DNA from: Candidatus Anstonellales archaeon
GTDB lineage: Archaea; Micrarchaeota; Micrarchaeia; Anstonellales; J096
DNA length: 64,000 nt
NCBI GenBank assembly: GCA_038890745.1
Contig: JAWAFD010000002.1
Span: forward strand, 32,001 to 96,000
Direction of reading: 5' to 3'
The translations under genes were made by a program, and so were the position numbers. Within the stretch, counting starts at the first letter, position 1. Every line of letters begins with the position of its first letter. Below are positions 13,449 to 42,259 of the stretch, piece after piece. The notes beneath the pieces were generated by a model, which was given only the letters and a program-made list of their open reading frames with translations, ran no database searches and was not told the DNA's origin.

Positions 13449-13496
13449 TAGCCCTTTTTCGCCTTTGGCGAAAAAGCATTTAATCGGAAAAGAGAA
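13449..13496 (+). other. Canonical 37/38 tRNA intron, 48 nt (shared family B)
   Basis: Relaxed BHB (CTCG/AGAG, 3 of 4 pairs). 32/36-nt core identical to the tRNA-Glu intron. Confidence 0.88.
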
Positions 13497-13527
13497 AACC
13501 GATCCCGCAAGGGATTGCAGGTTCAAA

Positions 13528-13663
13528 ACCAAACCTAGGGGGAAGTTTCCCCCTAGGTTCCAGGTCTCCTCCTTAACCCCCTCATTTTTGCTCGTATAAG
13601 ATAGGAGGGTTGGAGTTAGGGGGCTCATCTAATAAGCTGAGCTCCCCCCCTGGCTGGTGGAAA
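13528..13663 (+). other. T-loop 59/60 tRNA intron, 136 nt (shared family A)
   Basis: BHB: central helix TTCA/TGGA, bulges AAA and AAT, intron helix CCA/TGG. Near-identical to 16472-16607. Confidence 0.9.
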
Positions 13664-13759
13664 TCCTGCCCTCGGCGTTTAATATCTTATCTAAAGCACA
13701 CGCAGGGCCAAAATGATAGGGGGTGAATGGCATGCATATCCCCCGCTATTCTTGAGATA

Positions 13760-14326
13760 TTAACTTAACAAACTGAATAAACCAAACAGGATGAATAGGA
13801 TAGAGGTGATTGCGTTTATCGCTTTGCTTGGAATTCTCTCTGCAAGTTTTGTGCCTATCGAAACATATATTGCGATCACTAATGCAAGCGCTGAAATCAA
13901 TCCTAGTAGAACAAGGATGGGAGACTGGTATCTAGCAGCCAATAGACCCGAGGTTATTTGTGTCTTGTCTCCAAATTCACTAATAAAAACTGTTAGAAAT
14001 AAAGTTGCCAATGGCAGTTTGGTTGAAATCTTCTTTTTATTTCTTTTGACTCTAATGAGATATGGCTGAGCAAAAGTCCATAATCCAAAAAGAATAAACA
14101 AAACAGCAATTAATATTTTGATTAGATCAAATGGTAGATAAAAACTAAAAAGGGCACCAACCAAAATACCAAGCACATCCATCAGCACCTGAGCAGATAA
14201 CCCAATAAGAAAAATCTTGACTGGTGATTTATATTTTAATGCTAAGCCCAGGATTACCAGTTGGGATTTATCAGCGATCTCTGAGATTAATACTAATACA
14301 AAGGTAGCGATTAATGGTTCAAGCAT
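13760..14326 (-). CDS. GDT1/TMEM165 (UPF0016) Mn2+/Ca2+ transporter
   Basis: Two E-x-G/A-D-K-S/T-Q motifs (EIADKSQ, EFGDKTQ). Start at MLEPL. Confidence 0.9.
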   Translation of the reverse strand: MLEPLIATFVLVLISEIADKSQLVILGLALKYKSPVKIFLIGLSAQVLMDVLGILVGALFSFYLPFDLIKILIAVLFILFGLWTFAQPYLIRVKRNKKKISTKLPLATLFLTVFISEFGDKTQITSGLLAARYQSPILVLLGLISALALVIAIYVSIGTKLAERIPSKAINAITSILFILFGLFSLLS

Positions 14327-14434
14327 ATTTTCTAGTTTTGAGTAAGGGTTTAAAAATACCACCGCTAACTTCAGCGAAAAGCCCTAACTCTTTTGCTTGA
14401 TATAATATCCATCATATGCTCTTTTAAGTGTGTA

Positions 14435-15070
14435 TTATAAAAAATTCTTCTTTTCCTCCTCTTTCTCCCTCTTCTCCCTCTCCAACATTTTCAATTTTCT
14501 TTTTAAGAATTTCCTCATCGCTTCCCTGTTGTTTCCTGCGTATTTCGTATAGAGTGCAAGCATCACGAATATTTTGTTCGGCAAAAAACTCAGCTCCTCA
14601 ATGGTTATCTCTCCCTTTGTTTCGAGCATCGCAAGTGCCTTTTTCACAAGCTCTATCCTGCTTGTTCTTTTTCCCTTTCTCTTCTCAAAATACTTAAGCA
14701 ATCTCTCCGGGTTATCTATTTTTTTGAAAAGAAGCCACTCATAAATTTTGAACCTTTTTGCACCTATTCTGTGCAGCCGGTCTATAAGCGCCTCTATCTC
14801 ATAATTCTGCTTTATGTGGTGGAAGTGCGAGTATATTATCTGCTCTTTTTCATGCTTTCTCAATTCTAAATAGTGCTCATAATTCATTGGGATGAGAAGC
14901 TGGTGCTTCTCCATCTCCAGCTCAACTTTACTGAGTTTTCTTATCTCCTCTTCTACGGGCTGGGTGATCTGTAAGGTAAGAGGTTGCTTTTCTTCCTCTA
15001 GTATTGTCACCAACGCATCTAACCTAGAGGGCTTTAGCCCTGATGCGTTGACGGGGGAGTGACTGAACAC
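14435..15070 (-). CDS. Hypothetical protein
   Basis: 211-aa charged ORF with a TATA-like TTTAAAAA ~25 nt upstream. No motif recognised. Confidence 0.6.
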   Translation of the reverse strand: MFSHSPVNASGLKPSRLDALVTILEEEKQPLTLQITQPVEEEIRKLSKVELEMEKHQLLIPMNYEHYLELRKHEKEQIIYSHFHHIKQNYEIEALIDRLHRIGAKRFKIYEWLLFKKIDNPERLLKYFEKRKGKRTSRIELVKKALAMLETKGEITIEELSFLPNKIFVMLALYTKYAGNNREAMRKFLKRKLKMLEREKREKEEEKKNFL

Positions 15071-15108
15071 ATTAAGTATTCAATGAGAATTTTTTTAAAC
15101 CCTTCTTT

Positions 15109-16359
15109 TTAGCCCTTCTCCCTTTTACCTCTCTCAACATACCTTATCTCGTTCTTTTCAATCGGCATTATCGTATCCATGGCCGATTTTTCTATCTCCT
15201 TTATTTTCTTACTGGAGTGAAACAATAGCCGCGTATAGTCATACTGCAGCGCACCTGGCACCACCCATGTTAAGAGGGATGAGAGGAAAACAACCCCGGC
15301 GGTAAAACTTAGGATATCAATCGTGAATGCCGGTGAAAATTCTTTTGCCATGATCATCGAAAACTCTCCAGTCGATATCATCAATAATCCTATGAGCGCA
15401 GATTTTGCCCAGTTATTATTTGTTGCTATCAGCATGAGCGTTGATGAAGAAAGTTTCGCGACGCAGCTTACGAGAGTAATTATTATAATTGCAAAAGCAA
15501 AAACGGGATTCAGGAAAAATAGGATGTTTGCATTCATACCTAATGAAAGGAAGAATATTGTTATAAAAAGCGAGGTGAGGATGTTCATTTTTTCTATTGT
15601 GTTTTTCAACCCCATTTGCGTTGAGGAAAGAATGCCTGCGATGAAAGCACCAATGCTCTCAGGGACTGAGAAAACATGCGCCACAAGAATTACAACAACT
15701 GCGAGCGCTATGTAGAATAGAAAGTATGTTTCATCATTTTCAGGAAGGTGCCTTGCAACCATTCTTGAAATGCCGACTATCAAAAAAAGCGGAATAGCAA
15801 ACATCAGCATGCTTACCAACGCAGAAATCCCAACACTCCCGGTTTTTATGAACGATGTGGTAAAGAGGATAAAAAGAACAGCAAACAGATCCTCCCATAT
15901 AAGTTCTACATACATCGTTGTCGTTTCCCTTCCATAAACTATTCTAAAATCCTGCAATGCCTTGGAAAATATTGCAGTACTTGTAATCGAGAAAATCACG
16001 CCAAAGACTAATGCTTCAAATGGTGATAATGCGAACAGAAGCATTCCAACAGCGCCAACAACAGCCGCTGTAAAACCCATTTTCATAATAGAGATACCAA
16101 GTGAGTTTATCCCAACCTTTTTTATCAAATCCACCCTCATTTCCAAACCTATAAGATACATTAAAAGAATTGCGCCTATGGAAGAAAATATATCTATACT
16201 CTGTTGGTTTATGATTGAGAAACCATTTGGCCCGGCAAGCGCTGCGATTATAAGAAGGAGAGGAACGGATGGAAGCCTGAATTTTGCGGAAATAAAACTC
16301 GCTATGAATGCAAGCGTGAGCGCGATGAGAAAGCCGAGCGGGGTTACGGAAACATCCAT
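15109..16359 (-). CDS. Cation:proton antiporter (CPA2/Kef-like)
   Basis: LLMYLIGLE, SITSTAI, LIWEDL, GAFIAG, FFLSLGM, STGEFS. Confidence 0.88.
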   Translation of the reverse strand: MDVSVTPLGFLIALTLAFIASFISAKFRLPSVPLLLIIAALAGPNGFSIINQQSIDIFSSIGAILLMYLIGLEMRVDLIKKVGINSLGISIMKMGFTAAVVGAVGMLLFALSPFEALVFGVIFSITSTAIFSKALQDFRIVYGRETTTMYVELIWEDLFAVLFILFTTSFIKTGSVGISALVSMLMFAIPLFLIVGISRMVARHLPENDETYFLFYIALAVVVILVAHVFSVPESIGAFIAGILSSTQMGLKNTIEKMNILTSLFITIFFLSLGMNANILFFLNPVFAFAIIIITLVSCVAKLSSSTLMLIATNNNWAKSALIGLLMISTGEFSMIMAKEFSPAFTIDILSFTAGVVFLSSLLTWVVPGALQYDYTRLLFHSSKKIKEIEKSAMDTIMPIEKNEIRYVERGKREKG

Positions 16360-16413
16360 AAACCTAATTCTCTAGTTCAGTTTAAAAATATTCTTTTACA
16401 TTAATTCTATCAC

Positions 16414-16621
16414 GCCCCAGTAGCTCAGTGGTAGAGCGACCGCCTCGTAAGCGGTAGGTCGTGGGTTCAACACCAAACCCAGGGGGAAGTTTCTCCCTAG
16501 GTTCCAGGTCTCCTCCTTAACCCCCTCATTTTTGCTCGTATAAGATAGGGGGGTTGGAGCTAGGGGGGTCTGAGAATAAGTTAAAGTACCCCCTGGTCTG
16601 GTGAGAATCCCATCTGGGGCT
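16414..16621 (+). tRNA. tRNA-Thr(CGT) with a 59/60 intron (16472-16607)
   Basis: Acceptor GCCCCAG/CTGGGGC; D-arm GCTC-AGTGGTA-GAGC; anticodon ACCGC-CT-CGT-AA-GCGGT; T-stem GTGGG/CCCAT with loop TTCAAC^T. Confidence 0.93.
16472..16607 (+). other. T-loop 59/60 tRNA intron, 136 nt (shared family A)
   Basis: BHB: TTCA/TGAG, bulges ACA and AAT, CCA/TGG. 92/96 identity with the tRNA-Ser intron over the first 96 nt. Confidence 0.9.
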
Positions 16622-16690
16622 TATTTTTGCAAAATACCAAAACCGATAACCTTTTATTTGTTTTGTAATATAGTAATTAATGGTGGTAAA

Positions 16691-17170
16691 ATGGCAGAAG
16701 AGCTACATACGAAAAGAGCATTGAAGAAAGAGATGATGGAAAAACCCGGGCTTAGGAAGTTAGTTGAAAACAAACCTCTAGTAGTAGAGCATATAAATAA
16801 GTTTATTAAAGGAAATCTTGGGGTTCGTACACTTTTCAGAGACCTTTCGAATATCGATAAAGATGTAATACCATCTATTTTAAACATCATTCTAAGAAGA
16901 GCAAAAAACAACCTAGCTTTGAGTAATTTGTCTGATCTTCTCTTAAAACTTTATGGTGATAATATAATCGATGATAGATTTTATGAGGATATCCAAAGTA
17001 CCGTGATTTCTATGCTGAATACACATGATTTGGCTAAACTACAACCTATCCCTCCCGGCTCCGATGTGATGGACATATATCATGCATATACCTATTATGA
17101 AGTTCGTACTGGTTTTCCTCCGCAATACCCGCTAGGGGACCTTATCTTTAGAGAGCTTATGAACAAATAA
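16691..17170 (+). CDS. Hypothetical protein
   Basis: ORF from MAEELH with GGTGG upstream. The ORF-track start (16601) lies inside the tRNA and is spurious. Confidence 0.6.
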   Translation: MAEELHTKRALKKEMMEKPGLRKLVENKPLVVEHINKFIKGNLGVRTLFRDLSNIDKDVIPSILNIILRRAKNNLALSNLSDLLLKLYGDNIIDDRFYEDIQSTVISMLNTHDLAKLQPIPPGSDVMDIYHAYTYYEVRTGFPPQYPLGDLIFRELMNK

Positions 17171-17211
17171 GAATACCAAATCATTTTAAACAGTTTATTA
17201 TAATCCTTTAC

Positions 17212-18000
17212 ATGCACCCCATAATCATTTTTTCCTCAAAAAACATCGCGAGCAAAAACATAGCCGAGCATCTTATTAAACTTGGTTTTGAAAAAACAGG
17301 AGAAAACGAATGGAAATACAAAAACATTCGCATGATTGATACGAAGGTTGATTCTATTCTTAGTGTGCCAACAGATTTTGAGGAGGATTACATAATTGTT
17401 TTGAGCTCTCATAAAAGCGAGATGTCCCTACCTACCTTAACCGTTCATATTCCTGGCAACTGGGATTCTGCTGATTTTGGAGGCGAGCCAAGAACCCTGA
17501 ACGTAGCCTATGCAGGAAAGATGCTGCAGATTTTGAAGGGTTTGAAAAAATACGGATCCGAACTAGAAAAACAGGGATGGTATATTTGCTATGAAGTAGA
17601 CCATCATGGGCCTACCTGCAAAAAACCTATAATGTTTGTTGAGATAGGGAGTATGGAAAAGGAATGGATAAACGAACATGCCGGTGAGGTGGTTGCGAAA
17701 TCTGTTTTTGATGCAATAAGCAAAGATGAGGATCAAGCGTTTTGCTATTTTGGGGTTGGGGGAGGGCACTATGCACCTAAGTTTACAAAACTTGCCCTAG
17801 AAAAAAATTTTGCTTTTGGCCATATGCTTCCAAAATCTCGGGCGGGCAGCGTAGGAGAGGACACCTTCAAACAAGCAATAGAAAAAAATGTTGAAAAACT
17901 AAAGGCGATTGTTCTGGATTGGAAAGGGTTGAATAAGGAACAAAAAGATAGAGTTATTGAGTTGGCAAAAAAGTTCAATCTTGAGGTAATACGGGAATAA
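17212..18000 (+). CDS. dtdA: D-aminoacyl-tRNA deacylase (archaeal DTD2)
   Basis: SSHKS, LTVHIPGN, EVDHHGP, FVEIGS, GGGHYAPKF. Confidence 0.92.
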   Translation: MHPIIIFSSKNIASKNIAEHLIKLGFEKTGENEWKYKNIRMIDTKVDSILSVPTDFEEDYIIVLSSHKSEMSLPTLTVHIPGNWDSADFGGEPRTLNVAYAGKMLQILKGLKKYGSELEKQGWYICYEVDHHGPTCKKPIMFVEIGSMEKEWINEHAGEVVAKSVFDAISKDEDQAFCYFGVGGGHYAPKFTKLALEKNFAFGHMLPKSRAGSVGEDTFKQAIEKNVEKLKAIVLDWKGLNKEQKDRVIELAKKFNLEVIRE

Positions 18001-18056
18001 ACTAAAAATAAAGAAAGTGTTTTAATATTTGCCATGCTCATATTTTTGGTGAGAAA

Positions 18057-19163
18057 ATGAGAAACCCGGCAGTATTGTTTATTTTGTTGATGCTTTTTTC
18101 CGGATGTATCCAGCAGAGCGGGAATGTTTACATGACTTACGATATAACAGAGTGCAGCAAGGAAGAGCCTACTGGGATGAGTGTTGAGAAAGCCGGTGAT
18201 GTGATATACATAAAACAGGTTGAGAGCTATGTTTGCTGCGCTAATATTACTCTTGCAATGAACACAACTGGAAAAACAATAAAGATTTATGAAGAGAATG
18301 TCGGGGAGATGTGCAGGTGCATCTGCCCATTCAGAGCAAATATTTATCTCTACAACGCAACCGATTTTGAGAACATAGAAATCTATGGAATAAAATTCAG
18401 GGATGTCTATGGGTATGAACTTATGCACAACTATTCGCTTTTGCAAAACATAAGTAAGAATGAATCAGAAGAAAACAAAACAGATGAAAAGTTCTGCAAT
18501 GTTGATAGCGATTGCGCATGCGGTGTCCATAAGATTAGTGGGGAATGTTTTTTTGGAAACAAAAAATATGTTGATGAAACAATCCAATGTCCTGATTTCT
18601 GCACAGGGATAGCTGGAAACCTTGAGATAAGATGCGAAAATAACATGTGCGTGCAAAAGCAAAAACGCGTCATCGGGATTCCGAACCCGGCTTCTGTTTA
18701 TTGCGAGGAACATGGCGGAACCCTTGAAATAAGAAAGGATGAGAAAGGCGGCGAGTATGGCGTTTGTATTTTTGGTGATGGGAGCGAATGCGAAGAGTGG
18801 GCTTTTTACAGGGGGGAGTGCCATCCCGGAGAAAGGTTCTGCAAGGACATGTGCGGGGATGGAACATGCCAGGAGGTTGTTTGCATGGCTGTTGGCTGTC
18901 CATGTCCAGAGACGCCAGAAACATGCCCGCAGGATTGCAGAAGCAGCATCATAGCAGAGTGCAGTTCTGATTTGGATTGTGTTCATGTTCCTTCATGCTG
19001 CCATCAGCAATCCACGGAATGCGTTCCTAGATTTCAAGTTAAAGAATATCCAAATTGCGATGGGGTTGCATGCACTTTGGAGTGCAGGCAGTGCACAGAA
19101 TGCAGGTGTGTAGGTGGAAGATGCGAAACCATTCCTTTACCCATCGATATGTGCTGCGGCTGA
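18057..19163 (+). CDS. Cys-rich surface lipoprotein with a DUF333 domain
   Basis: Lipobox LFSGC; NPASVYCEEHGG...CEEWAFYRGEC (DUF333); several additional Cys clusters. Confidence 0.8.
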   Translation: MRNPAVLFILLMLFSGCIQQSGNVYMTYDITECSKEEPTGMSVEKAGDVIYIKQVESYVCCANITLAMNTTGKTIKIYEENVGEMCRCICPFRANIYLYNATDFENIEIYGIKFRDVYGYELMHNYSLLQNISKNESEENKTDEKFCNVDSDCACGVHKISGECFFGNKKYVDETIQCPDFCTGIAGNLEIRCENNMCVQKQKRVIGIPNPASVYCEEHGGTLEIRKDEKGGEYGVCIFGDGSECEEWAFYRGECHPGERFCKDMCGDGTCQEVVCMAVGCPCPETPETCPQDCRSSIIAECSSDLDCVHVPSCCHQQSTECVPRFQVKEYPNCDGVACTLECRQCTECRCVGGRCETIPLPIDMCCG

Positions 19164-19664
19164 GCTGGTTTCAAATCTACTAGAAAGAAAATAGACCAGC
19201 TTGTGGTCGTATCTAGAGAACATTTTGATTATCTCCTCCTTGTTTTTTAATCTTATGAACCCGCTGCTTAAGTAAAGTTTAATAGCACGGCGGTTATTCC
19301 TATGGGATGCTATAACAGCAGTTTTATTTTTTTTCGAAGCAATCTTCTGCAAATGATCAAGTATGAGCTTGCCGATTCCTCTTCCCCACAGATCGCTCCT
19401 TACCCATAGGCTCAGCTCTGCAAAGTGTTCTTTAATTTTTATACCTCCAAACCCAACCACTCCCATACCCTTTTTTCGATAAACGTAATAGCAGCTTTTA
19501 TCTTTACTCATTTCTCTGATTAGCTTAATTAGATATCTCTTTTCTTCTTCTAGGCTTTTAGGATATGGTGATTTAAGATACAAAAAAATCTCTGGAGAAA
19601 GGGCCGTATATAGTTCCTTAGCATCCGTTACCTTCAATCTCCTTGGCCTTATTTTTATCTGCAT
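19137..19664 (-). CDS. GNAT N-acetyltransferase (RimJ/RimL-like)
   Basis: AELSLWVRSDLWGRGIGK acetyl-CoA motif and NRRAIKLYLSSGF. Confidence 0.85.
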   Translation of the reverse strand: MQIKIRPRRLKVTDAKELYTALSPEIFLYLKSPYPKSLEEEKRYLIKLIREMSKDKSCYYVYRKKGMGVVGFGGIKIKEHFAELSLWVRSDLWGRGIGKLILDHLQKIASKKNKTAVIASHRNNRRAIKLYLSSGFIRLKNKEEIIKMFSRYDHKLVYFLSSRFETSSAAAHIDG

Positions 19665-21874
19665 GGTAACCCCTTTTTATACAAATCTGAGATATGGGTT
19701 AAGTTATTCCAATAGAAAAACAATAAATTATTTTCTGTGGTTTCTGGAAGAACTTTCTTTAATGCAGCTCTGGTATAGATAGGATCGATGTCGTAAAGGC
19801 AGTCAATGATTTCATCCGAGAGAGTTGTGTATATCTGGTCATTTTTCGCAAAAAGGTTTTCGAGTCTTAATCGCTGTAGCAGAGCCTTCAGCCCTTCTTT
19901 TTCTAAAAACTGCGTCTTTGGGGGTTTGGAATATTTTAATTTATGAAACATTTGAATACTTCGTTCGACATTCTCTGAGAATTTTATAGCAAATATTTTT
20001 GCAGTTGTATCGTCTAAATCGTCTAATCGGAAATAAAAATTGATGACCTTGATAAAAGCTATGAACTCTTTTTTCGTTAGTTCGGTGTCAATAATTTTAG
20101 ATAAAAGCAGCAAATAATTTTTTATTTCACTTGTCTCAAAGTCTCTTGTCGCTTCGTGCAGGCATTCTAGAACCATTGTCCTTTTGCAAAGTATCTCAAA
20201 AAATTCTGCTTTGAACATTTTATTTGCGAGTTGTCTTCGCTGCTCTAAAAAGAGCTTGTAAAAAGAGAGAACCTCGTTTTCATCAAACAAATTCTTACTA
20301 TGGGCGATTATTGAATACCATCTTAGATAATCTATCGTTCTTTGTAATCCAATGGCTTTTTTAATTAAGTCTGTTGGTAAAACTTTTGTTTTGTCTATGC
20401 TTTTGATCTCTTCTTGAAGTATCTTTTCGAACAGATATCCTTCAAAAAGCCCTTCTATTAAGTATGCCCGTGAAAATTCTGGCGCTAGTCTACTAAGTTT
20501 TTTATATAGTTGTTCTTTTGTCAGATTATCAAGATTAGAATCAAGTAGCATTGAGACAAATTTCATGTTAAGTCCGTAACCAAAATCCTCTTTTGTAAAA
20601 ATCTTTAGATCGACTTTTTTCTCCTGGATTGGCTTGATGAATAAGTTCGCATTATTTTCAATGCCTGGAATTAGAATCATATCTCTGTCCGTGAAGATTG
20701 TACTGGCCGCGGAGGGGCAGACCATTTCGCTTCCAGTGTCGTACAACTTTGTTTTCCTTGGAAAGATTGTATAATCTAACACCGCGCATACTAATCCAAA
20801 CTCAGATATAATCTCATACAAATTATGGAGATTTGTTTTTTTAAAGAGGTCGATAGCTCTGCTTGTTGCTAAAACGATCGCCTTTACCTTGTTAAAATCA
20901 TAGAACACCATATTGTTTAAATTAAGTTTTCGTGAACCTTCAGTAAATGGTGTTGTAAAGTGATAGGGAAAAGTATTATTTATCCAATGCGAGATATTTA
21001 TTATTTTATTGCAAATTTTCATTACTTCCTTTATGTCGCTGTCCGTTATCTTAATTTCCTTACCTTTTGCTTTTGTGGTATAATATAAAGTTAGAACATT
21101 AAAAAATAAAGGCCAGTTTGTTTTATCTAGTGTAGCCGCGTTAAGCAGATCAGTGGTATCTATTCCCTTTCTCCAGATCCCAATCTTTTCTCTATCTAGA
21201 ATTAGTATCGGATGAATAAAAATATTATAATGATCTTGCAGTTTGCCTTTTGAATTTATCAATTTGAGGGCCTTCGTTGGCCATGCACCAATAATGTTTC
21301 CACCTAAAACAAATGTATCAATCTCATCGAATATGCAAGGAAGAGCTATGTCGATAAATTCTTGGGTCACATACAAACCGTCTTCTATTTCAAAAGGCGT
21401 TTGTTTTTTTTTGTTGACTATGTTTAATTTTTGTGCCGTCTCTAAAGAATACCGTAAATCAGATTCGAACTGCCTTCCAAATATTAGGTTTACTTCGATA
21501 TCACCCTCTTGAAGTGGGGTCAGGATCATTGTTTCTCCGTATTTTTTAAAAGAGAGCTCAGCTAACTTTCTAATTTCTTTTATAAAATAAGATTCATTTT
21601 CAACATCCAAAATTTCTGTGTTATGGCATTCGTTTTCTGTTAGAGTTTTTTTAATGGTCTCAACTAATGGATAATCAGAAACTTTTCTGAATGGTAGCAA
21701 TAAACTTTTTCTTGTCATGCGCGCTATTGCTGCAGCATTTTTGAGAGTTAGAAGCTGACCAAGGTGCAATCCAGATATGCTTAGTAAAGTAGGAATAACG
21801 GTCCTCATAACAATATACTGCCTGTTGCGAAATATAAGGGTTTGCATGGCAGTAACTGTGGGGCATAATTCCAA
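19655..21874 (-). CDS. Degenerate class Ia (ValRS-like) aminoacyl-tRNA synthetase paralog with an unknown C-terminal domain
   Basis: VIP..SGLHLGQ (HIGH-like), DTFVLGGNIIGAW, IFIHPIL..REKIGIWRKGID (KMSKS position), GKEIKI..ICNKIINISHWI. Start may be ATG 21847. Confidence 0.7.
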   Translation of the reverse strand: MELCPTVTAMQTLIFRNRQYIVMRTVIPTLLSISGLHLGQLLTLKNAAAIARMTRKSLLLPFRKVSDYPLVETIKKTLTENECHNTEILDVENESYFIKEIRKLAELSFKKYGETMILTPLQEGDIEVNLIFGRQFESDLRYSLETAQKLNIVNKKKQTPFEIEDGLYVTQEFIDIALPCIFDEIDTFVLGGNIIGAWPTKALKLINSKGKLQDHYNIFIHPILILDREKIGIWRKGIDTTDLLNAATLDKTNWPLFFNVLTLYYTTKAKGKEIKITDSDIKEVMKICNKIINISHWINNTFPYHFTTPFTEGSRKLNLNNMVFYDFNKVKAIVLATSRAIDLFKKTNLHNLYEIISEFGLVCAVLDYTIFPRKTKLYDTGSEMVCPSAASTIFTDRDMILIPGIENNANLFIKPIQEKKVDLKIFTKEDFGYGLNMKFVSMLLDSNLDNLTKEQLYKKLSRLAPEFSRAYLIEGLFEGYLFEKILQEEIKSIDKTKVLPTDLIKKAIGLQRTIDYLRWYSIIAHSKNLFDENEVLSFYKLFLEQRRQLANKMFKAEFFEILCKRTMVLECLHEATRDFETSEIKNYLLLLSKIIDTELTKKEFIAFIKVINFYFRLDDLDDTTAKIFAIKFSENVERSIQMFHKLKYSKPPKTQFLEKEGLKALLQRLRLENLFAKNDQIYTTLSDEIIDCLYDIDPIYTRAALKKVLPETTENNLLFFYWNNLTHISDLYKKGLPCR

Positions 21875-21952
21875 TTAAAAAGATGCTTGGTTGGGAGTTG
21901 CATAGATGTTGCCTTGGCGAGTAGATTGTGCATTTATCTGTGTAGACCTATG

Positions 21953-22783: not shown

Positions 22784-22786
22784 GCT

Positions 22787-23797: not shown

Positions 23798-24189
23798 TTT
23801 TTCATCCTTTTCAACGCATCCATTAAGATTTTATTATGGTCAAAAGCAAGCTTAATTTTTTTCGCTTTCTCAACATCAAACCATCTCACTTCCTCAGCAT
23901 CATCGCTTGCTTTTAATTTCCCGCCGGTAATCCGGCATAAAAACGCAACCCCAACAATTTTTCTTGGGTCCCTTTTTGGGTCAGAATAAACCCCAACTAA
24001 TTTTTGTAATTTTACCCTAAGCCCGGTTTCTTCCATACATTCCCTTTTTGCGCATTCCTCTATTGTTTCGTTCTCCTCTAGCCTCCCCCCGGGAAAGGCC
24101 CACATTCCTTTGAATGGTTCATTTTTTCTTTTAACCAAAAGCACAGAATTATCTTTTATTATTATAATATCAGCGGCTATGGGGCGCAT
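23794..24189 (-). CDS. NUDIX hydrolase
   Basis: Nudix box GGRLEENETIEECAKRECMEETGL; LAFDH. Confidence 0.92.
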   Translation of the reverse strand: MRPIAADIIIIKDNSVLLVKRKNEPFKGMWAFPGGRLEENETIEECAKRECMEETGLRVKLQKLVGVYSDPKRDPRKIVGVAFLCRITGGKLKASDDAEEVRWFDVEKAKKIKLAFDHNKILMDALKRMKK

Positions 24190-29521: not shown

Positions 29522-29525
29522 TCTT

Positions 29526-32064: not shown

Positions 32065-32096
32065 TTTTTTAAACCTCATCTTCTAATTCTCTCTCT

Positions 32097-32912: not shown

Positions 32913-32919
32913 AATTAAG

Positions 32920-34488: not shown

Positions 34489-34890
34489 ATGGCGAAGATG
34501 TGTATTATTTGCGGGAATGAAATAAAGGGAAAAGATGCCTATAGGGTTAAGGAGGATATCGTGATAGAGTCGATTAGAAAGATAAAGAAAAAACTAAACA
34601 TGGCAAAGAACAATGAACTTTTTGTGTGCAGGGAGGATTATGAAAAATACAAAGAAAAGAGGAAGCAGTTTGAAAGAAACTTTACATTCGCTTCAGCGCT
34701 CGCAGCAGCCATCCTGCTGCTTCTTATAATAGTCCCGATTTTTTTTGGCTCCCTTCCAAGCATAGGCAGCATACTATTTGGTATTGTTGTTGGCATTTTC
34801 CTCATTTTCATGGCTCTCATCTCTTACCTCCCGGCTCTTGAGGAGGAGGTGGAGAGAATCGAGGGAGAGCAAAAAAAGAAAAAGCGGTGA
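34489..34890 (+). CDS. Small membrane protein with an N-terminal CxxC (Zn-ribbon-like) motif
   Basis: CIICG...VCRED and two C-terminal TM helices. Confidence 0.7.
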   Translation: MAKMCIICGNEIKGKDAYRVKEDIVIESIRKIKKKLNMAKNNELFVCREDYEKYKEKRKQFERNFTFASALAAAILLLLIIVPIFFGSLPSIGSILFGIVVGIFLIFMALISYLPALEEEVERIEGEQKKKKR

Positions 34891-34894
34891 ATGA

Positions 34895-35641
34895 ATGGCA
34901 ATACCGGTAAAAACAGGAGAGGGTGAAAAGCCATCTACTCCTGATGTCGGTGCGCTGAGAATAAATGCCAAGCTCAATGTCAGCTTTGATGATGTAGAAA
35001 GGGCGATCCTTCCTGTTGAGAAGGGAGAGGTTGCAAAAACAAAAGAGGGGGTTTCCTTCGCTTATGTGGAAACAAGGGATTTGAACGGTGTTCCTATTTC
35101 ATTTTTTATAATAAATTTTAAGAAAGATGGAATGGACGTGCTTTACTCCATCCCTCAGAATACAACCCCATCAAAGAGGAAATGGGAGGTTACGAAAAAA
35201 CTTTTGACCATTCTGATGCTTCTAAGAGATGCCTACACGATAGACACGAAGGATATTATAGGGCTTGTGGATATGGTCATAAAAGATTTGGATGCATACG
35301 CCACGCAGGATTATGGCCGGCTTTATTCCGAATACGATAAACTGAAGAATGAAATAAAAAGGCTGAACAGAAAGGTTGTCGTTCTTTCCGAGGAAAACGA
35401 GCGCTTGGTTAAGGAAAACTACGAGCTGAACAGCAGGAATGATGAGCTGATCCTAAAGATAAAAAAACTTGAAACGCTTTCTCCGGAAACCTTGAGGGAA
35501 AGAATACAGGACTGGCTCAGGGAGCACAATGGTGAGATAAACATTGGGGAGTTTGCGAGAATATACAGCGTGCCTGAGGCTCTTGTTGAGGAGCAGCTTA
35601 ACAAACTCGTTAAAGAAGGATTCATAACCCCAATTCAGTAG
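34895..35641 (+). CDS. Coiled-coil protein with a C-terminal winged helix
   Basis: Heptad coiled coil, then WLREHNGEINIGEFARIYSVPEALVEEQLNKLVKEGFI. Confidence 0.7.
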   Translation: MAIPVKTGEGEKPSTPDVGALRINAKLNVSFDDVERAILPVEKGEVAKTKEGVSFAYVETRDLNGVPISFFIINFKKDGMDVLYSIPQNTTPSKRKWEVTKKLLTILMLLRDAYTIDTKDIIGLVDMVIKDLDAYATQDYGRLYSEYDKLKNEIKRLNRKVVVLSEENERLVKENYELNSRNDELILKIKKLETLSPETLRERIQDWLREHNGEINIGEFARIYSVPEALVEEQLNKLVKEGFITPIQ

Positions 35642-35648
35642 TGGTTTT

Positions 35649-38063
35649 ATGGCTGCGATAAAGAGAAGGCAATTCAAGTTTGAGGTTGAGAAGAAGTATA
35701 CGCATGTAAAAAGGTTTAAGGAGATAAAAAAATCAGAGCTTCAGCTTTTTCTAGAGGCGCTGTTTAAAAAAAAGGAAGAGAAAAAACCAGAATTACGGGA
35801 AGAGGAAAAAAAAGAGGAAAAACCATCAGCCGTGAAGATAATTGTGATTGGTTTGTTTGTATTCATCCTGATTCTCGCAGGAATAATTTTTTACATACTA
35901 AGCCTTCCACCTATTGTTCCTCCTGCTGAAGAGAAGATTCCGGCACACTTCATAAATGTTCTGAAGACTGGGACTGCCAGCTATGGTGCCGAATTCTCCC
36001 CAAGAACCGTTGCCTACTCAATAGTGGAGACAAACGCAACAAACATAAAACTTAACTTTTACACCTCCCCGGTTTCCAATCAAGTTTTCATACTTGAATG
36101 TGGTAAATACCAATCCCAGAATAACTATCCTTACTTTGAGGGTGTTTTGAAAAACTCTTTGGAAGAAAAAGGTTTTTCTGTTGGAAAAATAAGCGCAGAA
36201 GAAGCACTTTCTATCCCGGAAGGGGCGGTGGTAATCGCGCCCTGCGGAAAATTTCCAAAAGAGCTGATGGTGCCAGAATTTAGCAGTTTTGTCAGAAGAG
36301 GAAATACGTTTGTTTATATAGGATTAGAGCCGAATCAAGCAATAGATCTGGACGGTTCTTTGACCTCAGTTCCATCCTCTTTCTGGAAAACATTTAATAT
36401 AAATTTTGAAAGAGTTGGGATGACTTGCAACGCATCCTTAAAAGACCCTCTTTACAAGGCTGGGTCTCTTATAAGAGGGTGCATAAGCGTTGTGGATTAC
36501 GGAAAAGGAAGTATAATTTTTGTTCCGCAAGCTCTGGATGTTGGATGGGACAGCGGAACGCATGCTGCGGAAGATGTTGAGAAAATACTTTCCGGCACAG
36601 AATGGTTAAAACCTAAATATGAAAGTTCTTTCACAACGAATCAAACGAACATTCTTGTTTTTGTTGATTCTGAAAAAACCGGCTATCTAAAAGTCTATTC
36701 TACAGCAGATAAAGGTGAGCTTACGTACGCTGTTTTTAGGCAGATTTTTACCGATGTTGCCGGCGAACTCTATGTAAGCGAGGGACCTGCTGTTCTTTCA
36801 CCAACGCTCTCCGGCGCGCCCCTTAACTTCCACGCGTTCATAAACGATGGTGGGGAGCAGAGATCGCTTTTCTTAGATGTTGTGAATTTGCAGGGGGAGA
36901 ACGTAGAAAAAATTTCCTTAGGCGTCCACCCACTCTCTTCGGATTTCATATTCTCCTACACAGGCACCCTTCCGGAAGGCACATACCTTTGTGAGATAAA
37001 CGATGGGCAGAAGGCATACGCGAGAGGAATTTTTTCCATCTCTCCGATTGAGATAAAAACGCAGACAAATTTCATGGAATCGAAATACACATTCAGCTTT
37101 TTTGTGGGTGATAAAAAAGTTTCTCTTAGGAATGTTAAAATAAAATTCCGTGATAAAACATATCAGTATAGCAATGTAAATTCTGTTGAACTTGACTTGA
37201 ATAGAGAGTTTGGTGGGCCGACCCCCACTGGTTCGTATGATTTTATTTTCACAATAGGCGGGGAACAGAAAACAGTTACCGTTGTAAGGAGAGAAACAGG
37301 AGGACTTTCGACAATTTTTACTCCACTAAACATCCTTCTATTTTCCATCGCGCTGGCCATTGTAGCAATAGGAGTGTACTTCGCAAGGAAGGAGGAAGCT
37401 CCGTATGCGCTCGATATTCCGGCCTTCCCGCCAATAGAAAAAATAAAAATTCCAATAAAGAGAAAAGAGGTACTTGAAATATTCAAAAAAGTTAATGATT
37501 TCTACAAATGGAAATACACCCCGCTGAAGCTTTCTGAGATAAAGGGAGGGTTTAAGAGCATATACTACCAGGGGAAACCGATATACCTCAGCGACTACAA
37601 CCTCGAATTCATATTGGATAAGCTTGAGAGGAGAGGGGATGTGAAGAGCTATCTTGAATACTATGGGCTTACGGAATGGGAAAAGGAAAGCGGAAGAAGT
37701 ATTCCTGCGCTCTGCATGTTCAGGGCAATAAGGGATATATGTGTAGTGAACGCGATTCCGTTTAGCGATCTGGGAAGGGCAAAGGACTGTGATACGAAAT
37801 TAAAGGTTATCGGCCAGGATTTCTACATAAATTTCTACGAGAAGGGGAGGATGGCTGAGGTGATGAAGAATTCAACAGAGTGTGCGAAAAAAGGGGTTTC
37901 CATAATACTTTTTGGGAGTCAGGAGGAAAAGGAAAGTTTTATCCCATATGTATACTCCCCAAACAGGCTTTCTGGTATTTTAAAGTTTTATGTTGAAAGC
38001 GGGGATGTCCTCCTCCTTACTGTTGATGAGTTGAGGAAGAAAATAAAGGAAATAAAGGGATGA
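35649..38063 (+). CDS. Large two-TM membrane protein with a ~490-aa ectodomain and cytoplasmic C-terminal domain
   Basis: 804 aa; TM helices near aa 62-85 and ~560-580. Confidence 0.75.
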   Translation: MAAIKRRQFKFEVEKKYTHVKRFKEIKKSELQLFLEALFKKKEEKKPELREEEKKEEKPSAVKIIVIGLFVFILILAGIIFYILSLPPIVPPAEEKIPAHFINVLKTGTASYGAEFSPRTVAYSIVETNATNIKLNFYTSPVSNQVFILECGKYQSQNNYPYFEGVLKNSLEEKGFSVGKISAEEALSIPEGAVVIAPCGKFPKELMVPEFSSFVRRGNTFVYIGLEPNQAIDLDGSLTSVPSSFWKTFNINFERVGMTCNASLKDPLYKAGSLIRGCISVVDYGKGSIIFVPQALDVGWDSGTHAAEDVEKILSGTEWLKPKYESSFTTNQTNILVFVDSEKTGYLKVYSTADKGELTYAVFRQIFTDVAGELYVSEGPAVLSPTLSGAPLNFHAFINDGGEQRSLFLDVVNLQGENVEKISLGVHPLSSDFIFSYTGTLPEGTYLCEINDGQKAYARGIFSISPIEIKTQTNFMESKYTFSFFVGDKKVSLRNVKIKFRDKTYQYSNVNSVELDLNREFGGPTPTGSYDFIFTIGGEQKTVTVVRRETGGLSTIFTPLNILLFSIALAIVAIGVYFARKEEAPYALDIPAFPPIEKIKIPIKRKEVLEIFKKVNDFYKWKYTPLKLSEIKGGFKSIYYQGKPIYLSDYNLEFILDKLERRGDVKSYLEYYGLTEWEKESGRSIPALCMFRAIRDICVVNAIPFSDLGRAKDCDTKLKVIGQDFYINFYEKGRMAEVMKNSTECAKKGVSIILFGSQEEKESFIPYVYSPNRLSGILKFYVESGDVLLLTVDELRKKIKEIKG

Positions 38064-38065
38064 TT

Positions 38066-39193
38066 CTATTTTTTGAGGAGGGATTGGTAGAGTTCTATGT
38101 ATTTTTTCGCAACCTTTTTTATATCATACTCTTTCGCGGCATTTTTTGCATTCTCACCTATTTTTTTCTTGCATTCCAATGCTTGGATCACCTTTTCAGG
38201 GAATTCTTTCTCGTCCCTGAATAAAAATCCCGTTTCACCTTCTTTCACGAACTCTGCCGGTGCGGAGTTTGCCGGAACAACCGGAGCGCATCCGCATGCC
38301 ATACTTTCCAGAACGCTTAACCCTTGCGTATCAAACGAAGATGGGAATAGAAATGCCTTTGCTGAATTATAATACACAGGAAGCTCCTCATCCTCAACAA
38401 ACCCGGGCATCAAAACATTATCTTCAACCCCTAGCATCTTTATCTTGTTCCTTACATCATCCTCATAAGGCCCCTTTCCAACAAGAATGAATGTTGCTTT
38501 CTTTCTGTTTATCACAGAAGGAATGGAATCTATTATCAGGTCCACATTCTTTTCCTTCACTATTCTACCAACATAAAGTGCAAACGGCCCTCTTTTTCCG
38601 TTTATTTTTGCTTTCTTATTCTTTACCCTTGCGAATCTGTTATACTCTATTCCGTTTGGCATTACTACGCAATTTTCAATTCCGATCTCTCTTAGTGCAT
38701 TTTTCGCGTAGTTGCTTGGTGTGGTTACAACCCTAAACTGCTTGTAATACCATCTTAGATATTTTACAGCAACATCCTCCAGGATATTTTTTAGGCTCGG
38801 GTTCTGAGAGAGGTAATAGGTTGCTTTATGCACCATGGTATGAAAGGAAGCTATGGCCGGGATTTTTAATTTTTGTGAGCACTGGATAGCAGCAAGTCCA
38901 GTTGTTGCTATTCCATGGCTGTGTATAATGTCGATGTGCATCTCCTGCACCAATTTTACAGCAGAGATGAACGGAAATAGAGCAATCCGATAATCAGGGT
39001 AGGGTTTGAAAACAGCAGAGCTGAAATAATACACCCTTTTATCCTTATTCTCTTCCTTTTGTTTTTTTGTTCCCGGAGTAAACATAAAAACCTCATGCCC
39101 TTCTTTTTCGAGTTCATTCCTTAGGTTAAGCATCGCTGTAACCACACCATCCCTCTGCGGAAGATAGGTATCTGTGAAGAATGCTATTCTCAT
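38066..39193 (-). CDS. GT4 glycosyltransferase
   Basis: FTDTYLPQRDGV, YVGRIVKEKN, DTQGLSVLESMACG. Confidence 0.92.
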   Translation of the reverse strand: MRIAFFTDTYLPQRDGVVTAMLNLRNELEKEGHEVFMFTPGTKKQKEENKDKRVYYFSSAVFKPYPDYRIALFPFISAVKLVQEMHIDIIHSHGIATTGLAAIQCSQKLKIPAIASFHTMVHKATYYLSQNPSLKNILEDVAVKYLRWYYKQFRVVTTPSNYAKNALREIGIENCVVMPNGIEYNRFARVKNKKAKINGKRGPFALYVGRIVKEKNVDLIIDSIPSVINRKKATFILVGKGPYEDDVRNKIKMLGVEDNVLMPGFVEDEELPVYYNSAKAFLFPSSFDTQGLSVLESMACGCAPVVPANSAPAEFVKEGETGFLFRDEKEFPEKVIQALECKKKIGENAKNAAKEYDIKKVAKKYIELYQSLLKK

Positions 39194-40017
39194 CAGAGCG
39201 CCTCCATAAAATTTATTTTTGCATACTTATTCGGAATGGTGTTTGAGGTAATTATATAATCCGCTGAGCCTTCTATCCTTTGCAAACTATCCTTCAAAAA
39301 GAATGCATGCACGGTTGCGACCCCAACCTTTCTCGCACCTGCTTTTTTTACGTTTTCCAGAGCCCTAACCATCGTGCCGCCGGTACTTATCATATCATCA
39401 ATTATGAGTACATCCCTGCCCATTACTTCCTGCACACCTTCTACCTTTTCAATTTTCCTATACGCCTCCTTCCCTTTAACATACTCCCCTCTTACTTTTT
39501 TCATCGATTTCTCAGCCATGTATCCCGCTCCTTCATCAGGGCTTATTGTAATAAGGTTTTTTGAGAATTCTTCTTTTGCTTTTTCAATCAACTTCCCTCC
39601 AAGTGAAATGTTCTTGATTTTCATCCCTGCCCTTTCGTACTCTCCGCTCCCGGTTTTTATAAAATGACAATCAAATGTTATTATTTTTTCTACCCCGCTC
39701 TCTCTCAGCATGCTCAGCAAGATATCTATGCTCAGCGCTTCTCCTTCCAAAAATGTTTTATCCTGCCTTGAATACGGAAGGTATGGAATGACAGCGGCCT
39801 GTATTTTTGCACCCATTTTTCTCAGGGTTCTTGAGGCTAAGATTAGCTCAAAAATTCTTGAATTCTGCTCAGGCCAGAGCCTGGCATATATTGTTACTTC
39901 CTTTCCTTTGAATTTTTCCGGCTCAAGAATTCTCACGTAGCTGTCCCCATCCGGAAAGTTTTTTACTTCTATGTTTGGGTTTAGCAGGTCTGAGAAATTC
40001 GGCATTACGGCTTCCAT
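39193..40017 (-). CDS. prs: Ribose-phosphate pyrophosphokinase
   Basis: FPDGDSY, PYLPYSRQDK, SPDEGA, IIDDMISTGGT. Confidence 0.93.
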   Translation of the reverse strand: MEAVMPNFSDLLNPNIEVKNFPDGDSYVRILEPEKFKGKEVTIYARLWPEQNSRIFELILASRTLRKMGAKIQAAVIPYLPYSRQDKTFLEGEALSIDILLSMLRESGVEKIITFDCHFIKTGSGEYERAGMKIKNISLGGKLIEKAKEEFSKNLITISPDEGAGYMAEKSMKKVRGEYVKGKEAYRKIEKVEGVQEVMGRDVLIIDDMISTGGTMVRALENVKKAGARKVGVATVHAFFLKDSLQRIEGSADYIITSNTIPNKYAKINFMEAL

Positions 40018-40133
40018 GTTTTTATACTAACCGAAAGGATTTAAATCTGTTTGGGGGCAGATCAGCTACTCTATTTAATAAGCGCAAGCCCAACCCCAAT
40101 TATTATCAGGAAATCCTTCCATATCGAACAGGT

Positions 40134-40562
40134 TTAGACGAGTTCTTCGGGTGCAAAAACCCTCTCGCAATATATGCACCTATACCTTTCCCCTTCCTTT
40201 TTGAAGTGCTTGTGCATCTCTTCATTATTCGTGATGCAGCTTGGGTTTGGGCAATGGCCTATCCTTAAATCATCGGGCATTTCAACGCTCTTTTTCTCAA
40301 CGACCTTTGAATCCCTTATTATGTTTATGGTTGTTTCTGGAGAAACGAGCGCAATTAGGTTCAGCTTTTCATCAGAAAGAAAAACACCCTCAATCTTTAC
40401 AATATCTTTCTTCCCAAGCTTTTTGCTCTTTACGTTTGAAAGAAGGGCTATGCTTCCCTCATGTTTCTCATCCAACCCAAGAAGCTTCAATATCTTTGTC
40501 CCTTTCCCGGCCCTTATATGGTCTATCACAGTTCCTTCCTTTATTGCCTCAACCTTAAGCAT
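40134..40562 (-). CDS. pyrI: Aspartate carbamoyltransferase regulatory subunit
   Basis: GTVIDHI, KKDIVKIE, CPNPSCIT, CIYCE. Confidence 0.96.
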   Translation of the reverse strand: MLKVEAIKEGTVIDHIRAGKGTKILKLLGLDEKHEGSIALLSNVKSKKLGKKDIVKIEGVFLSDEKLNLIALVSPETTINIIRDSKVVEKKSVEMPDDLRIGHCPNPSCITNNEEMHKHFKKEGERYRCIYCERVFAPEELV

Positions 40563-41460
40563 GTTCTCCCTCCAAAATATATTTTATCAATCCCATGCGA
40601 ACAGGAATCCCGTTTTTCGCCTGCTCAAAGTATTTTGCATGAGGGGTTTTGTCTATCTCCAAATCTATTTCATTGACCCTTGGAAGCGGATGCATTATTA
40701 TCATATCCTTCTTTGCATTCTTTATAGCTTCCTTTGTTATTCTGAATTTTTCCATTATCCTTTTCGCTTCAAGAGGGTCAGCAAACCTCTCCTGCTGTAT
40801 TCTTGTTACATAAAGAACATCATCCTTGCTGAAGTCCGGCTCATCCTCAACGCTTATTTTTGTGTTGAACTTTTTCTCAACCTCTTCTATAAAATCAACC
40901 GGAACCTCAAGCCCTGCTGGGGATGTGACAGCGATTTTTGCACCAAACATAGCGAGCGCGTATATTAAAGAATGCATTGTCCTCGCATGCTTCAGGTCGC
41001 CCATCATCCTTACATTCAGCCCTTTTATCGTTCCCTTCTCTTTTAGTATTGTATAAAGGTCTAGCATTGTTTGCGTGGGATGCTGGTTTCCTCCATCCCC
41101 ACCGTTTATTATGGATGCATCGGCAATCTCAGCAGCATATCGCGCAGCACCCTCATACTTATGTCTTATGACTATAATATCCGAATATCCATCAAGCATC
41201 CTCACAGTGTCTGCAAAGCTTTCCCCTTTTTTTACAGAACTAAGCTCGCTTATGAAATCAATGTACCTTAGCCCGAGCCTCAGGGATGCGCTCTGGAAAC
41301 TGAGCTTTGTCCTCGTCGAGGGTTCAAAGAACAGCGTTGCAACAACCCCATCAAGCTTTTCCACCCTACCGCTCTTCAACTGCCTATCCATTTCCTTTGC
41401 GATCTCAAAAATTTCTTCAAACATTTTTTTGTTTATATCACGAACAGATATTACATCCAT
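40555..41460 (-). CDS. pyrB: Aspartate carbamoyltransferase catalytic subunit
   Basis: FFEPSTRT, HPTQ, RIQQER, HPLPR. Confidence 0.97.
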   Translation of the reverse strand: MDVISVRDINKKMFEEIFEIAKEMDRQLKSGRVEKLDGVVATLFFEPSTRTKLSFQSASLRLGLRYIDFISELSSVKKGESFADTVRMLDGYSDIIVIRHKYEGAARYAAEIADASIINGGDGGNQHPTQTMLDLYTILKEKGTIKGLNVRMMGDLKHARTMHSLIYALAMFGAKIAVTSPAGLEVPVDFIEEVEKKFNTKISVEDEPDFSKDDVLYVTRIQQERFADPLEAKRIMEKFRITKEAIKNAKKDMIIMHPLPRVNEIDLEIDKTPHAKYFEQAKNGIPVRMGLIKYILEGEHA

Positions 41461-41520
41461 AAAACCCCCTTGTTGAATTTGGCAAAAAAATATTTAAACC
41501 TTTTGAGGGAAGGGAATTCC

Positions 41521-42096
41521 ATGCTGATTGTTTTTGAGGGTATAGATGGATGCGGGAAGAATACGCACATCACCCTTCTTCAAGGGGAATATGATTTTGA
41601 GGTTTTAAAGTTTCCGCGAGAAAAATATTCCATACTCGGTGATTTTCTGCGCGGGAATGTTGAGATAAACAGAAAAGCGCTTTTCCTCCTTTTTCTTTCC
41701 GATATAACAGATGGGATATCTGAAATTTCAAAAATAAACAAGCCGGTGTTTTTGGACAGGTATTTTTTCTCAACGATTGCGTATGAGGTTGATGGAGTAG
41801 AGTATGAAACGGCAAAAAATATTGTAAACTCCCTTTCCCTTCCAAAACCGGATGGAGTTGTTCTGCTTGACATCCCACCTGAAATTTCGTATGAAAGGAA
41901 AGTTGCCCAAAAAGGATTGGACAGATACGAGAGGGACGTTGAATACCTTCGGAGGGTGAGAGGGAACTTTCTGAAACTTTACGAGGAAAAGTTCTATACT
42001 GAAAATTGGTTTTTGATAGATGGGAACCGGCCGATAATGGAAGTTTATAAGGATGTGAAAGAAGTAATAGAGAAACTTGGCATAAGAAAGGGTTAA
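41521..42096 (+). CDS. tmk: Thymidylate kinase
   Basis: FEGIDGCGKNT, LDRYFFSTIAY, LPKPD. Start at MLIVF. Confidence 0.92.
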   Translation: MLIVFEGIDGCGKNTHITLLQGEYDFEVLKFPREKYSILGDFLRGNVEINRKALFLLFLSDITDGISEISKINKPVFLDRYFFSTIAYEVDGVEYETAKNIVNSLSLPKPDGVVLLDIPPEISYERKVAQKGLDRYERDVEYLRRVRGNFLKLYEEKFYTENWFLIDGNRPIMEVYKDVKEVIEKLGIRKG

Positions 42097-42136
42097 AAAA
42101 AGTTCCGCATAGTTTAAAAAATCTTCATTTCCATTT

Positions 42137-42259
42137 GCTCCGATCGTCTAGTGGACAAGGATACTGGCCTTTCGAGGAACCTTTTCGCCTTCGGCGTAAA
42201 AGCGTTTCATCGGAAAATGAAGAAAGCCAGTGACCCGGGTTCGAATCCCGGTCGGAGCA
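42137..42259 (+). tRNA. tRNA-Glu(TTC) with a 37/38 intron (42175-42224)
   Basis: Acceptor GCTCCGA/TCGGAGC; anticodon CTGGC-CT-TTC-G^A-GCCAG; T-arm CCGGG-TTCGAAT-CCCGG. Confidence 0.94.
42175..42224 (+). other. Canonical 37/38 tRNA intron, 50 nt (shared family B)
   Basis: BHB central helix CTTT/GAAG with bulges CGA and AAA. Core homologous to 13449-13496. Confidence 0.9.

Follow-up and report, generated by a model that had tools for sequence, protein, structure and literature searches.

A mirror-tailed repeat with a putative triplex layout among the tRNA and 23S rRNA introns of a Candidatus Anstonellales archaeon

Why two different tRNA genes of one archaeon carry nearly the same intron is the question raised by a 64,000-nt stretch of Candidatus Anstonellales DNA (contig JAWAFD010000002.1, positions 32,001 to 96,000; hereafter the window), in which tRNA-Ser(CGA) and tRNA-Glu(TTC) are each interrupted at position 37/38. 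The window lies on contig C2 of a genome of 989,524 nt that is 94% complete (G000), and the metagenomes with matching DNA are hot-spring samples. Both introns are copies of a repeat unit of 35-60 nt that consists of a pyrimidine arm, a complementary purine arm, a short linker and a mirror-image purine tract. On sequence grounds we lean towards the view that this unit is a non-autonomous, triplex-patterned DNA repeat that is copied into structured-RNA genes and kept where an EndA of the epsilon2 type can excise it. The parts of the two introns are as follows (window coordinates).

13411-13677, + strand: tRNA-Ser(CGA) gene, interrupted by introns at 37/38 and at 59/60, from the curated catalogue; missed in the window by ARAGORN and Rfam
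13449-13496, + strand: 37/38 intron of tRNA-Ser(CGA), 48 nt, a repeat copy with slight decay that starts right at the splice site
13454-13476, + strand: hairpin of the Ser intron in the fold, with pyrimidine arm (13454-13459), inner stem-loop and purine arm (13471-13476)
13487-13491, + strand: mirror tract GAAAA of the Ser intron, mirroring AAAAG at 13472-13476 in the mirror parse; predicted third strand
13491-13496, + strand: 3' end of the Ser intron, AGAG facing exon positions 32-34, then the predicted 3' bulge of a bulge-helix-bulge, from sequence and constrained fold
42137-42259, + strand: tRNA-Glu(TTC) gene
42175-42224, + strand: 37/38 intron of tRNA-Glu(TTC), 50 nt; the element proper begins 2 nt inside, at 42177
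42181-42202, + strand: hairpin of the Glu intron, with CTTTT pyrimidine arm (42181-42185), inner stem-loop and AAAAG purine arm (42198-42202)
42203-42217, + strand: 10-nt linker of the Glu intron (a TTCA loop closed by CG...CG) followed by the mirror tract GAAAA (42213-42217), together the "conserved tail" of the original prediction; the triplex role is predicted
42219-42224, + strand: 3' end of the Glu intron, GAAG facing exon positions 32-35, then the 3' bulge, from sequence

A genome scan places the two introns exactly where the original prediction had put them, with the same lengths and a 36-nt core that is identical at 32 positions and differs at 4. Since the next-best site on either strand of the genome has 11 mismatches, this match is far above chance. 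Removal of the introns leaves a 73-nt tRNA-Glu and an 83-nt tRNA-Ser, both normal and in frame with intron-free orthologues. Both introns are also present in contigs of two further samples from the same study (runs X3 and X4) and are therefore no assembly artefact. Joints that skip the introns in the X3 and X4 DNA runs were considered as strain polymorphism and rejected; we assign them to other organisms because the pieces are short and mismatched and their flanks unlike. Many tRNA genes of this genome escape standard tRNA finders, default ARAGORN reporting 20 genes against the 43 of the curated catalogue.

Seen from the window alone, the pair had been taken for an independent 37/38 family, a view that does not survive the genome-wide comparison: copies occur mostly as introns of the T-loop, but also in 23S rRNA and at sites that are not introns. 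The curated tRNA genes carry a 59/60 intron in 26 cases, a 37/38 intron in 18 and an intron of any kind in 36. By eye, 15 of the 26 T-loop (59/60) introns belong to the repeat (14 by pattern), some of them short and tail-less, while 7 of the others form one other family and 4 a third; the 37/38 introns of His(GTG) and Leu(CAA) are further variants. Arg(TCG) and Met share a letter-identical intron, and so do Gly(TCC) and Leu(TAA). A search with a 20-nt pattern of arm, linker and tail, for which the reversed pattern served as control, returned 10 matches in G000 and 5 and 11 in G001 and G002, two genomes of the same genus; the reversed control returned 0. All 10 matches in G000 lie inside tRNA introns (8 at 59/60, and the 2 window introns at 37/38). 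The suspicion, voiced beforehand, that the motif might be a general repeat unrelated to tRNAs is thus half borne out, in that copies outside tRNAs do exist. The longest member of the family is a bulge-helix-bulge intron of the 23S rRNA gene with a self-complementary GTAC splice helix (contig C1, ~188981-189053; L257, ~4981-5053). Another 23S intron, with an open reading frame of 185 aa, sits ~30 nt upstream of it, and the gene holds two more such reading frames. By their motif, these reading frames appear to be LAGLIDADG-like.

The tail of the unit mirrors its purine arm. Among 132 sequences examined, 61 could be parsed into 50 distinct arm sets, 26 of which are perfect mirrors. A mirror partner exists for 277 of 299 A's and for 35 of 47 internal G's; it is the G's that carry evidential weight because the A's are partly selected for. 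The mirror is centred on a TTCA-type loop and reads AAAAG/GAAAA in the window copies, AAGAAA/AAAGAA in the His, Ile(TAT), Thr, Pro and Gly variants and AAAGA/AGAAA in the Ser intron of G002; in the 23S copy it is complete (12/12, one of 220 arrangements). It is conceivable that the tail is simply a tandem duplicate of the purine arm, and 5 of 13 hand-picked asymmetric pairs fit both models. However, the asymmetric variants match the mirror better (a fixed-centre mirror against a free-offset direct repeat gave 7 wins, 1 loss and 5 ties in these pairs), and the tandem-duplicate reading was therefore dropped. Pyrimidine arm, complementary purine arm and mirror tract, in this order, define the class II intrastrand triplex according to Holder et al., 2015 (PMC4666352), and the unit has this layout. 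Since purine-motif triplexes, as stated there, cannot form in RNA, the constraint probably acts on single-stranded DNA. The 23S copy would provide 12 triads and each window copy five potential ones, and the window copies are probably minimal or decaying forms, remnants in which, for Ser, the linker has decayed. A genome-wide triplex finder gave 43 matches against 1-3 in shuffles, most of them in purine-rich coding DNA; only its sole long match is used here, because most of the others are coding and the shuffle is a weak null.

That these introns are mobile and have spread recently, with the 3' end fitted to the loop of the host, had also been predicted, and comparison with close relatives agrees. 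Across loci around the tRNA hits of G001 and G002 (two Val entries of G002 being partial), the 59/60 site differs in presence or family in 24 of 58 orthologue comparisons, with nearly identical exons. The tRNA-Glu(TTC) intron of the window is shared by G000 and G002 and replaced by a different variant in G001, and all 13 tRNA-Glu(TTC) loci from other genera of the family are intron-free, as are two further loci that prove to be Glu(CTC). The G002 orthologue of a third window tRNA, tRNA-Thr(CGT), carries the mirror-tail repeat in place of an intron of another family, and tRNA-Ile(GAT) of G001 has almost the same core at both 37/38 and 59/60. G000 and G002 both have the 23S intron. A further 14 genomes of the family match in 23S, each over sequence downstream of the intron alone, and in the 7 of these 14 that were inspected the site is cleanly empty. 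The T-loop junction pattern is confined to 3 of the 19 family genomes, all of this genus, and the arm-linker-tail pattern was not found in the other 16; in G007, which has 6 introns in 43 tRNAs, none is a T-loop intron. These introns were gained after close relatives diverged and recur in different tRNA types, as transposed intron families do. The original interpretation as a whole is partly supported.

Beyond the genus, the arm-linker-tail pattern matches 11 of 176 genomes of the order, 10 of which are real on inspection and come from four families, the eleventh being a chance match in coding DNA; in a sample of the phylum it matches 11 of 401 genomes. Sites of the element in the distant carriers are 37/38, 59/60, D-arms, positions behind tRNAs and beside duplicated gene starts, and an apparent C/D-like small RNA. 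Two of these genomes, G044 (C87, L160) and G050 (C62, L161), have the element flanked by a duplicate of the upstream 25-55 nt, with the intact gene remaining downstream; the duplicated segment is the start of a NusA-like gene in G044 and the 5' part of a tRNA in G050. G013 has copies behind two tRNAs, one of them antisense. In G051 (C18, L162) and G313 (C1, L253) the element is flanked by what look, by eye, like the D' and C' boxes of a C/D-like small RNA, to which Rfam gave no match; the first guide of the G313 RNA appears, also by eye, complementary to the 3' end of 16S. Closer to the window genome, G001 has a 36-nt copy in the 5' untranslated region of an Sm gene, just before the ribosome-binding site, and this site is empty in G000 and G002. 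A splice motif at this copy was considered and set aside: by eye it would reach at most 2-3 of 4 helix pairs, and excision would not give the empty allele. A metagenome search returned 57 loci and one viral contig; 20 of the loci belong to the family by pattern and ~5 more by eye, several duplicating copies already counted, and the rest are chance matches in coding DNA. Matches in G162 and G270, one in G050 and one in G001 were likewise discarded as chance, as were the 2 bacterial matches of the exact hairpin pattern across all species genomes.

Would such a unit be removed from the precursors? At the junctions of both introns a bulge-helix-bulge is predicted in relaxed form, and the intron hairpin folds as the original prediction drew it. 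Its further statement that each 3' end pairs with its own anticodon loop is accurate for Glu, where GAAG/CTTT gives three Watson-Crick pairs and one G-U, and less so for Ser, where AGAG/CTCG gives three of four pairs and one G.A. The splice-ready, constrained fold of Ser is at most 0.2 kcal/mol from the minimum. The tail, thought at the outset to be unpaired, is free only in the splice-ready fold and is predicted to pair in the lowest-energy folds, its partner there being the 5' arm or the host loop. EndA, whose architecture had been proposed as a check, is an epsilon-type protein of 375 aa whose match to the epsilon2 enzyme of ARMAN-2 (4FZ2) has an E of 2.3e-88; the lysine of the specificity loop and the catalytic Tyr, His and Lys are aligned, and the genome appears to encode a broad-specificity EndA. 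The enzyme of ARMAN-2 (Ca. Micrarchaeum acidiphilum) is reported to cut T-loop and anticodon-loop introns, relaxed T-loop motifs included (PMC3488258). ARMAN-2 resembles the present genome in enzyme type and in having introns in both the T-loop and the anticodon loop, although PMC3488258, in its accessible text, treats the enzyme and not repeat families or the origin of intron sequences. Judged by sequence, junctions and enzyme together, both window introns look like archaeal bulge-helix-bulge tRNA introns. A second EndA-like protein, of 147 aa, is encoded in addition to the epsilon-type enzyme (contig C1; L002, 1339-1782).

How, then, might the repeat reach new genes? It is possible that the mirror tail serves as the third strand of a purine-motif intrastrand triplex in single-stranded DNA, not RNA, and that this fold stalls or redirects DNA synthesis or repair, whereupon template switching at short homologies would copy the unit. 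The 37/38 copies may derive from T-loop donors, because each site takes the same position in a 5-bp stem capped by a loop of 7 nt, and because the Glu and Ser loops resemble TTCGAA (the Ser(CGA) loop ends in TCGAA, and the Glu(TTC) loop has TTCG). Structural reasoning suggests that 37/38 and 59/60 are equivalent and that an intron should therefore be usable at either with four base changes in the 3' helix; a few host-specific bases at the 3' end may later have restored the splice helix. Copies would then be likely to persist in those tRNAs whose flanks form a bulge-helix-bulge that the epsilon2 EndA can cleave. The junctions may have kept a trace of such an origin. Among 19 family copies at 37/38, nine hosts have a T-loop-like YTCN within the loop, and in seven of these nine the element starts in the T-loop register, 6 nt past the start of YTCN; this start is offset into the intron by 2 nt in Glu, by 1 nt in Gly(TCC) and Arg(TCG) and by 0 nt in Ser and Pro. 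tRNA-Glu(TTC) has received two different variants, both with 2 extra bases.

Several observations weigh against this scenario. The register test is suggestive and no more, because two of the nine hosts miss the register (a variant with an extra A) and two of the seven matches are a single event (Glu in G000 and G002); moreover, one host without the motif also has 2 extra bases, and the extra bases could be host bases 38-39. All intron copies in G000 share one (sense) orientation, which fits an RNA route or selection at the transcript level. For Glu the splice-ready fold is predicted to be less stable than the minimum, by 5.9 kcal/mol at 37 C and by 3.4 kcal/mol at 65 C. As for the triplex itself, the 5-nt tract of the window copies is under the 6-nt floor of the finder, the A-to-A mirror matches stem in part from the selection of tracts, the copies are related by descent and the 13 asymmetric pairs were picked by hand, and predicted RNA folds also allow Watson-Crick pairing of the tails with the 5' arm. 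In E. coli the triplex was seen in vitro and is unsupported by in vivo footprinting (Holder et al., 2015, PMC4666352). Finally, a domain search in G000-G002 (PF00078, PF01797, PF01541 and PF04480; integrases and TnpB were not searched) found no linked mobiliser. Reverse transcriptase (PF00078) is lacking in G000, as far as its 94% goes, and in G001, with a sub-threshold match in G002; Y1 transposase (PF01797) and GIY-YIG (PF01541) domains are lacking in all three, and the single DUF559 (PF04480) match is below cut-off with nothing linked. Among other carriers with Y1 loci, none of the loci inspected (4 of 6) is bounded by the element.

An RNA route would account for some of this. If the splicing ligase joined excised introns, linear or circular, into other RNAs and a reverse transcriptase wrote the products into DNA, the tail would simply be inherited, every intron copy in G000 would be in sense orientation, as is the case, and elements would begin at the splice site, as they do exactly in 8 of the 19 rows of the 37/38 table. 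The Glu(TTC) intron of G001 also fits: in it a second unit comes after a complete T-loop-type unit that retains its 3' end. However, the lack of a reverse transcriptase domain above threshold in G000 (94% complete), G001 and G002, the antisense and non-spliceable copies and the mirror symmetry, which is left unexplained, render this route unlikely. We favour DNA-level copying at short homologies because of the register, the antisense, untranslated-region and target-duplicating copies and the lack of reverse transcriptase. Another way to move DNA would be by integrating viruses or plasmids with attachment sites over the anticodon or T loop, which deliver an intron that recombination then spreads within the genome; mobile-element integration has been proposed as a route of intron gain in Caldiarchaeum (PMC3293823). 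Near-identical cores scattered over 10 of 176 order genomes in four families do suggest lateral movement, and tRNA 3' fragments are repeated behind tRNAs, some with the element. Yet the sole viral-contig match is a chance match in coding DNA (integrases were outside the search), and the copies in 23S, small RNA and the 5' untranslated region go unaccounted for, so that we regard delivery of this kind as distinctly improbable.

The remaining alternatives assign the tail a function in the host. It could be an alternative pairing partner through which the precursor alternates between a blocked and a splice-ready state: in a T-loop copy the tail is predicted to pair with the 5' arm (p ~0.99), in Glu with the anticodon loop, the blocked fold being favoured there, and in 36 of 38 distinct copies the 5' GAR covaries with the linker CGY, mostly marking two subfamilies. 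In the long copies, however, the tail would form poorer Watson-Crick pairs than the first arm does, and yet it is an exact mirror, and the free gain, loss and exchange of the element among hosts speak against a host function; we give such a switch little credence. The guide or protein-binding role for the excised intron, at which the original prediction hinted, draws on a 20-nt arm-linker-tail that is letter-identical across distant families and on a tail that is unpaired in the splice-ready fold. It fares worst: the introns have neither C nor D box, complementarity of the tail to rRNA or tRNA extends over no more than 8 nt, a length reached in 154-175 of 300 shuffles, Rfam matched only tRNA in the window, the tail varies with the purine arm and not with any target, and arm-linker-tail was not found in 16 of the 19 family genomes. 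A guide role is hard to credit.

The triplex-patterned repeat that we favour recalls several known systems. MITE- and REP-type elements are non-autonomous and are moved by HUH (Y1) transposases. They share with the archaeal repeat the short, non-coding form, the hairpin with a conserved mismatch and tail and the patchy spread, whereas the latter lacks terminal inverted repeats and a fixed target duplication and has neither a Y1 transposase in G000-G002 nor, in the inspected loci of other carriers, one flanked by the element. Fujishima and colleagues are said to have described transposed tRNA intron families of Thermoproteales in 2010. In these archaea, too, similar introns occur in different tRNA types of one genome, by a mechanism given as unknown in a 2014 review that treats the arrival of archaeal tRNA introns as open (PMC4090602). 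Here the phylum and the EndA type (epsilon2) are different, the unit has a three-tract mirror anatomy, and copies are found also in 23S rRNA, probably small RNA, untranslated regions and flanks. A 2026 census of Asgard archaea, in its accessible text, reports almost no shared intron families and no general arrival route (bioRxiv 10.64898/2026.10.13.758758). The closest likeness in layout is to BoxC/PIT/TMECO of bacteria, which have the same order of tracts, are multi-copy, vary among close relatives and have no known mobiliser; the triplex-motif sites of E. coli vary to an unusual degree from strain to strain (Holder et al., 2015, PMC4666352). The bacterial repeats are G/C-rich, whereas the archaeal one is A/T-rich with a conserved CG-closed linker, lies mainly in introns of tRNA and rRNA genes (the word tRNA occurs 0 times in the main text of PMC4666352) and has tracts of no more than 5 nt in the window copies. 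By analogy the repeat may work as BoxC/PIT/TM would, a comparison of layout and not of sequence kinship. A literature search found no paper tying triplex or mirror repeats to archaeal or DPANN tRNA introns, most subscription journals lying outside its coverage.

A bacterial-type, triplex-patterned repeat may thus be placed within essential archaeal RNA genes. The genus supplies filled, empty and swapped alleles of the same tRNAs along with a defined donor sequence in long and short forms; given these alleles and donor forms, the non-intron copies and junctions that may record register, the route by which introns arrive becomes directly testable. One could go further and propose, as a tentative idea that we would not yet bet on, that a selfish, protein-free, triplex-folding DNA repeat is a main supplier of new introns to the tRNA and rRNA genes of DPANN archaea, switching templates into stem-loops, hopping between T-loop and anticodon loop via TTCGA-like sequence and being neutralised by the epsilon2 EndA. 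If true, this would be a concrete mechanism of intron birth in archaea, caught under way among sister species.

All three tRNAs of the window hold shared introns, as originally noted, and tRNA-Ser holds two families. The features concerned are these.

13528-13663, + strand: second intron of tRNA-Ser(CGA), at 59/60, 136 nt, of the other shared family (7 copies in the genome)
16414-16621, + strand: tRNA-Thr(CGT), with a 136-nt 59/60 intron (16472-16607) of the same other family

This second T-loop family, found in 7 tRNAs, is made of G/C-rich hairpin modules, which also occur in tandem arrays behind tRNAs on either strand. Fragments of tRNA 3' ends (T-arm and acceptor strand) are tandemly repeated behind tRNAs as well, with hairpin modules between them; in G002 two such repeats hold the mirror-tail element in the copied T-loop. 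Their positions are as follows.

179250-179850, contig C1 of G000: tRNA 3'-fragment tandem repeats
252000-252360, contig C1 of G000: tRNA 3'-fragment tandem repeats
313700-314089, contig C2 of G000: tRNA 3'-fragment tandem repeats
11100-11500, contig C9 of G002: tRNA 3'-fragment tandem repeats

The 37/38 introns of Leu(TAA) and Leu(TAG) (C2, 248980-249320; C1, 313723-314184) are built of tandem 79-nt units with a G/C-rich pyrimidine-purine-mirror layout that resembles the E. coli TM motif, and related introns are found in Cys, Thr and iMet of relatives. Val(GAC) and Val(TAC) have related D-loop introns of ~40 nt (C1, 141697-141808; C4, 91661-91774), of which there are none in G001 and G002. 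A tRNA-Ile with a TAT anticodon is encoded at 103867-104018 of C1, and G007 has one too. The 92-nt intron of tRNA-Met (C1, 37929-38130) contains TGATGA-like boxes, unlike the mirror-tail repeat family.

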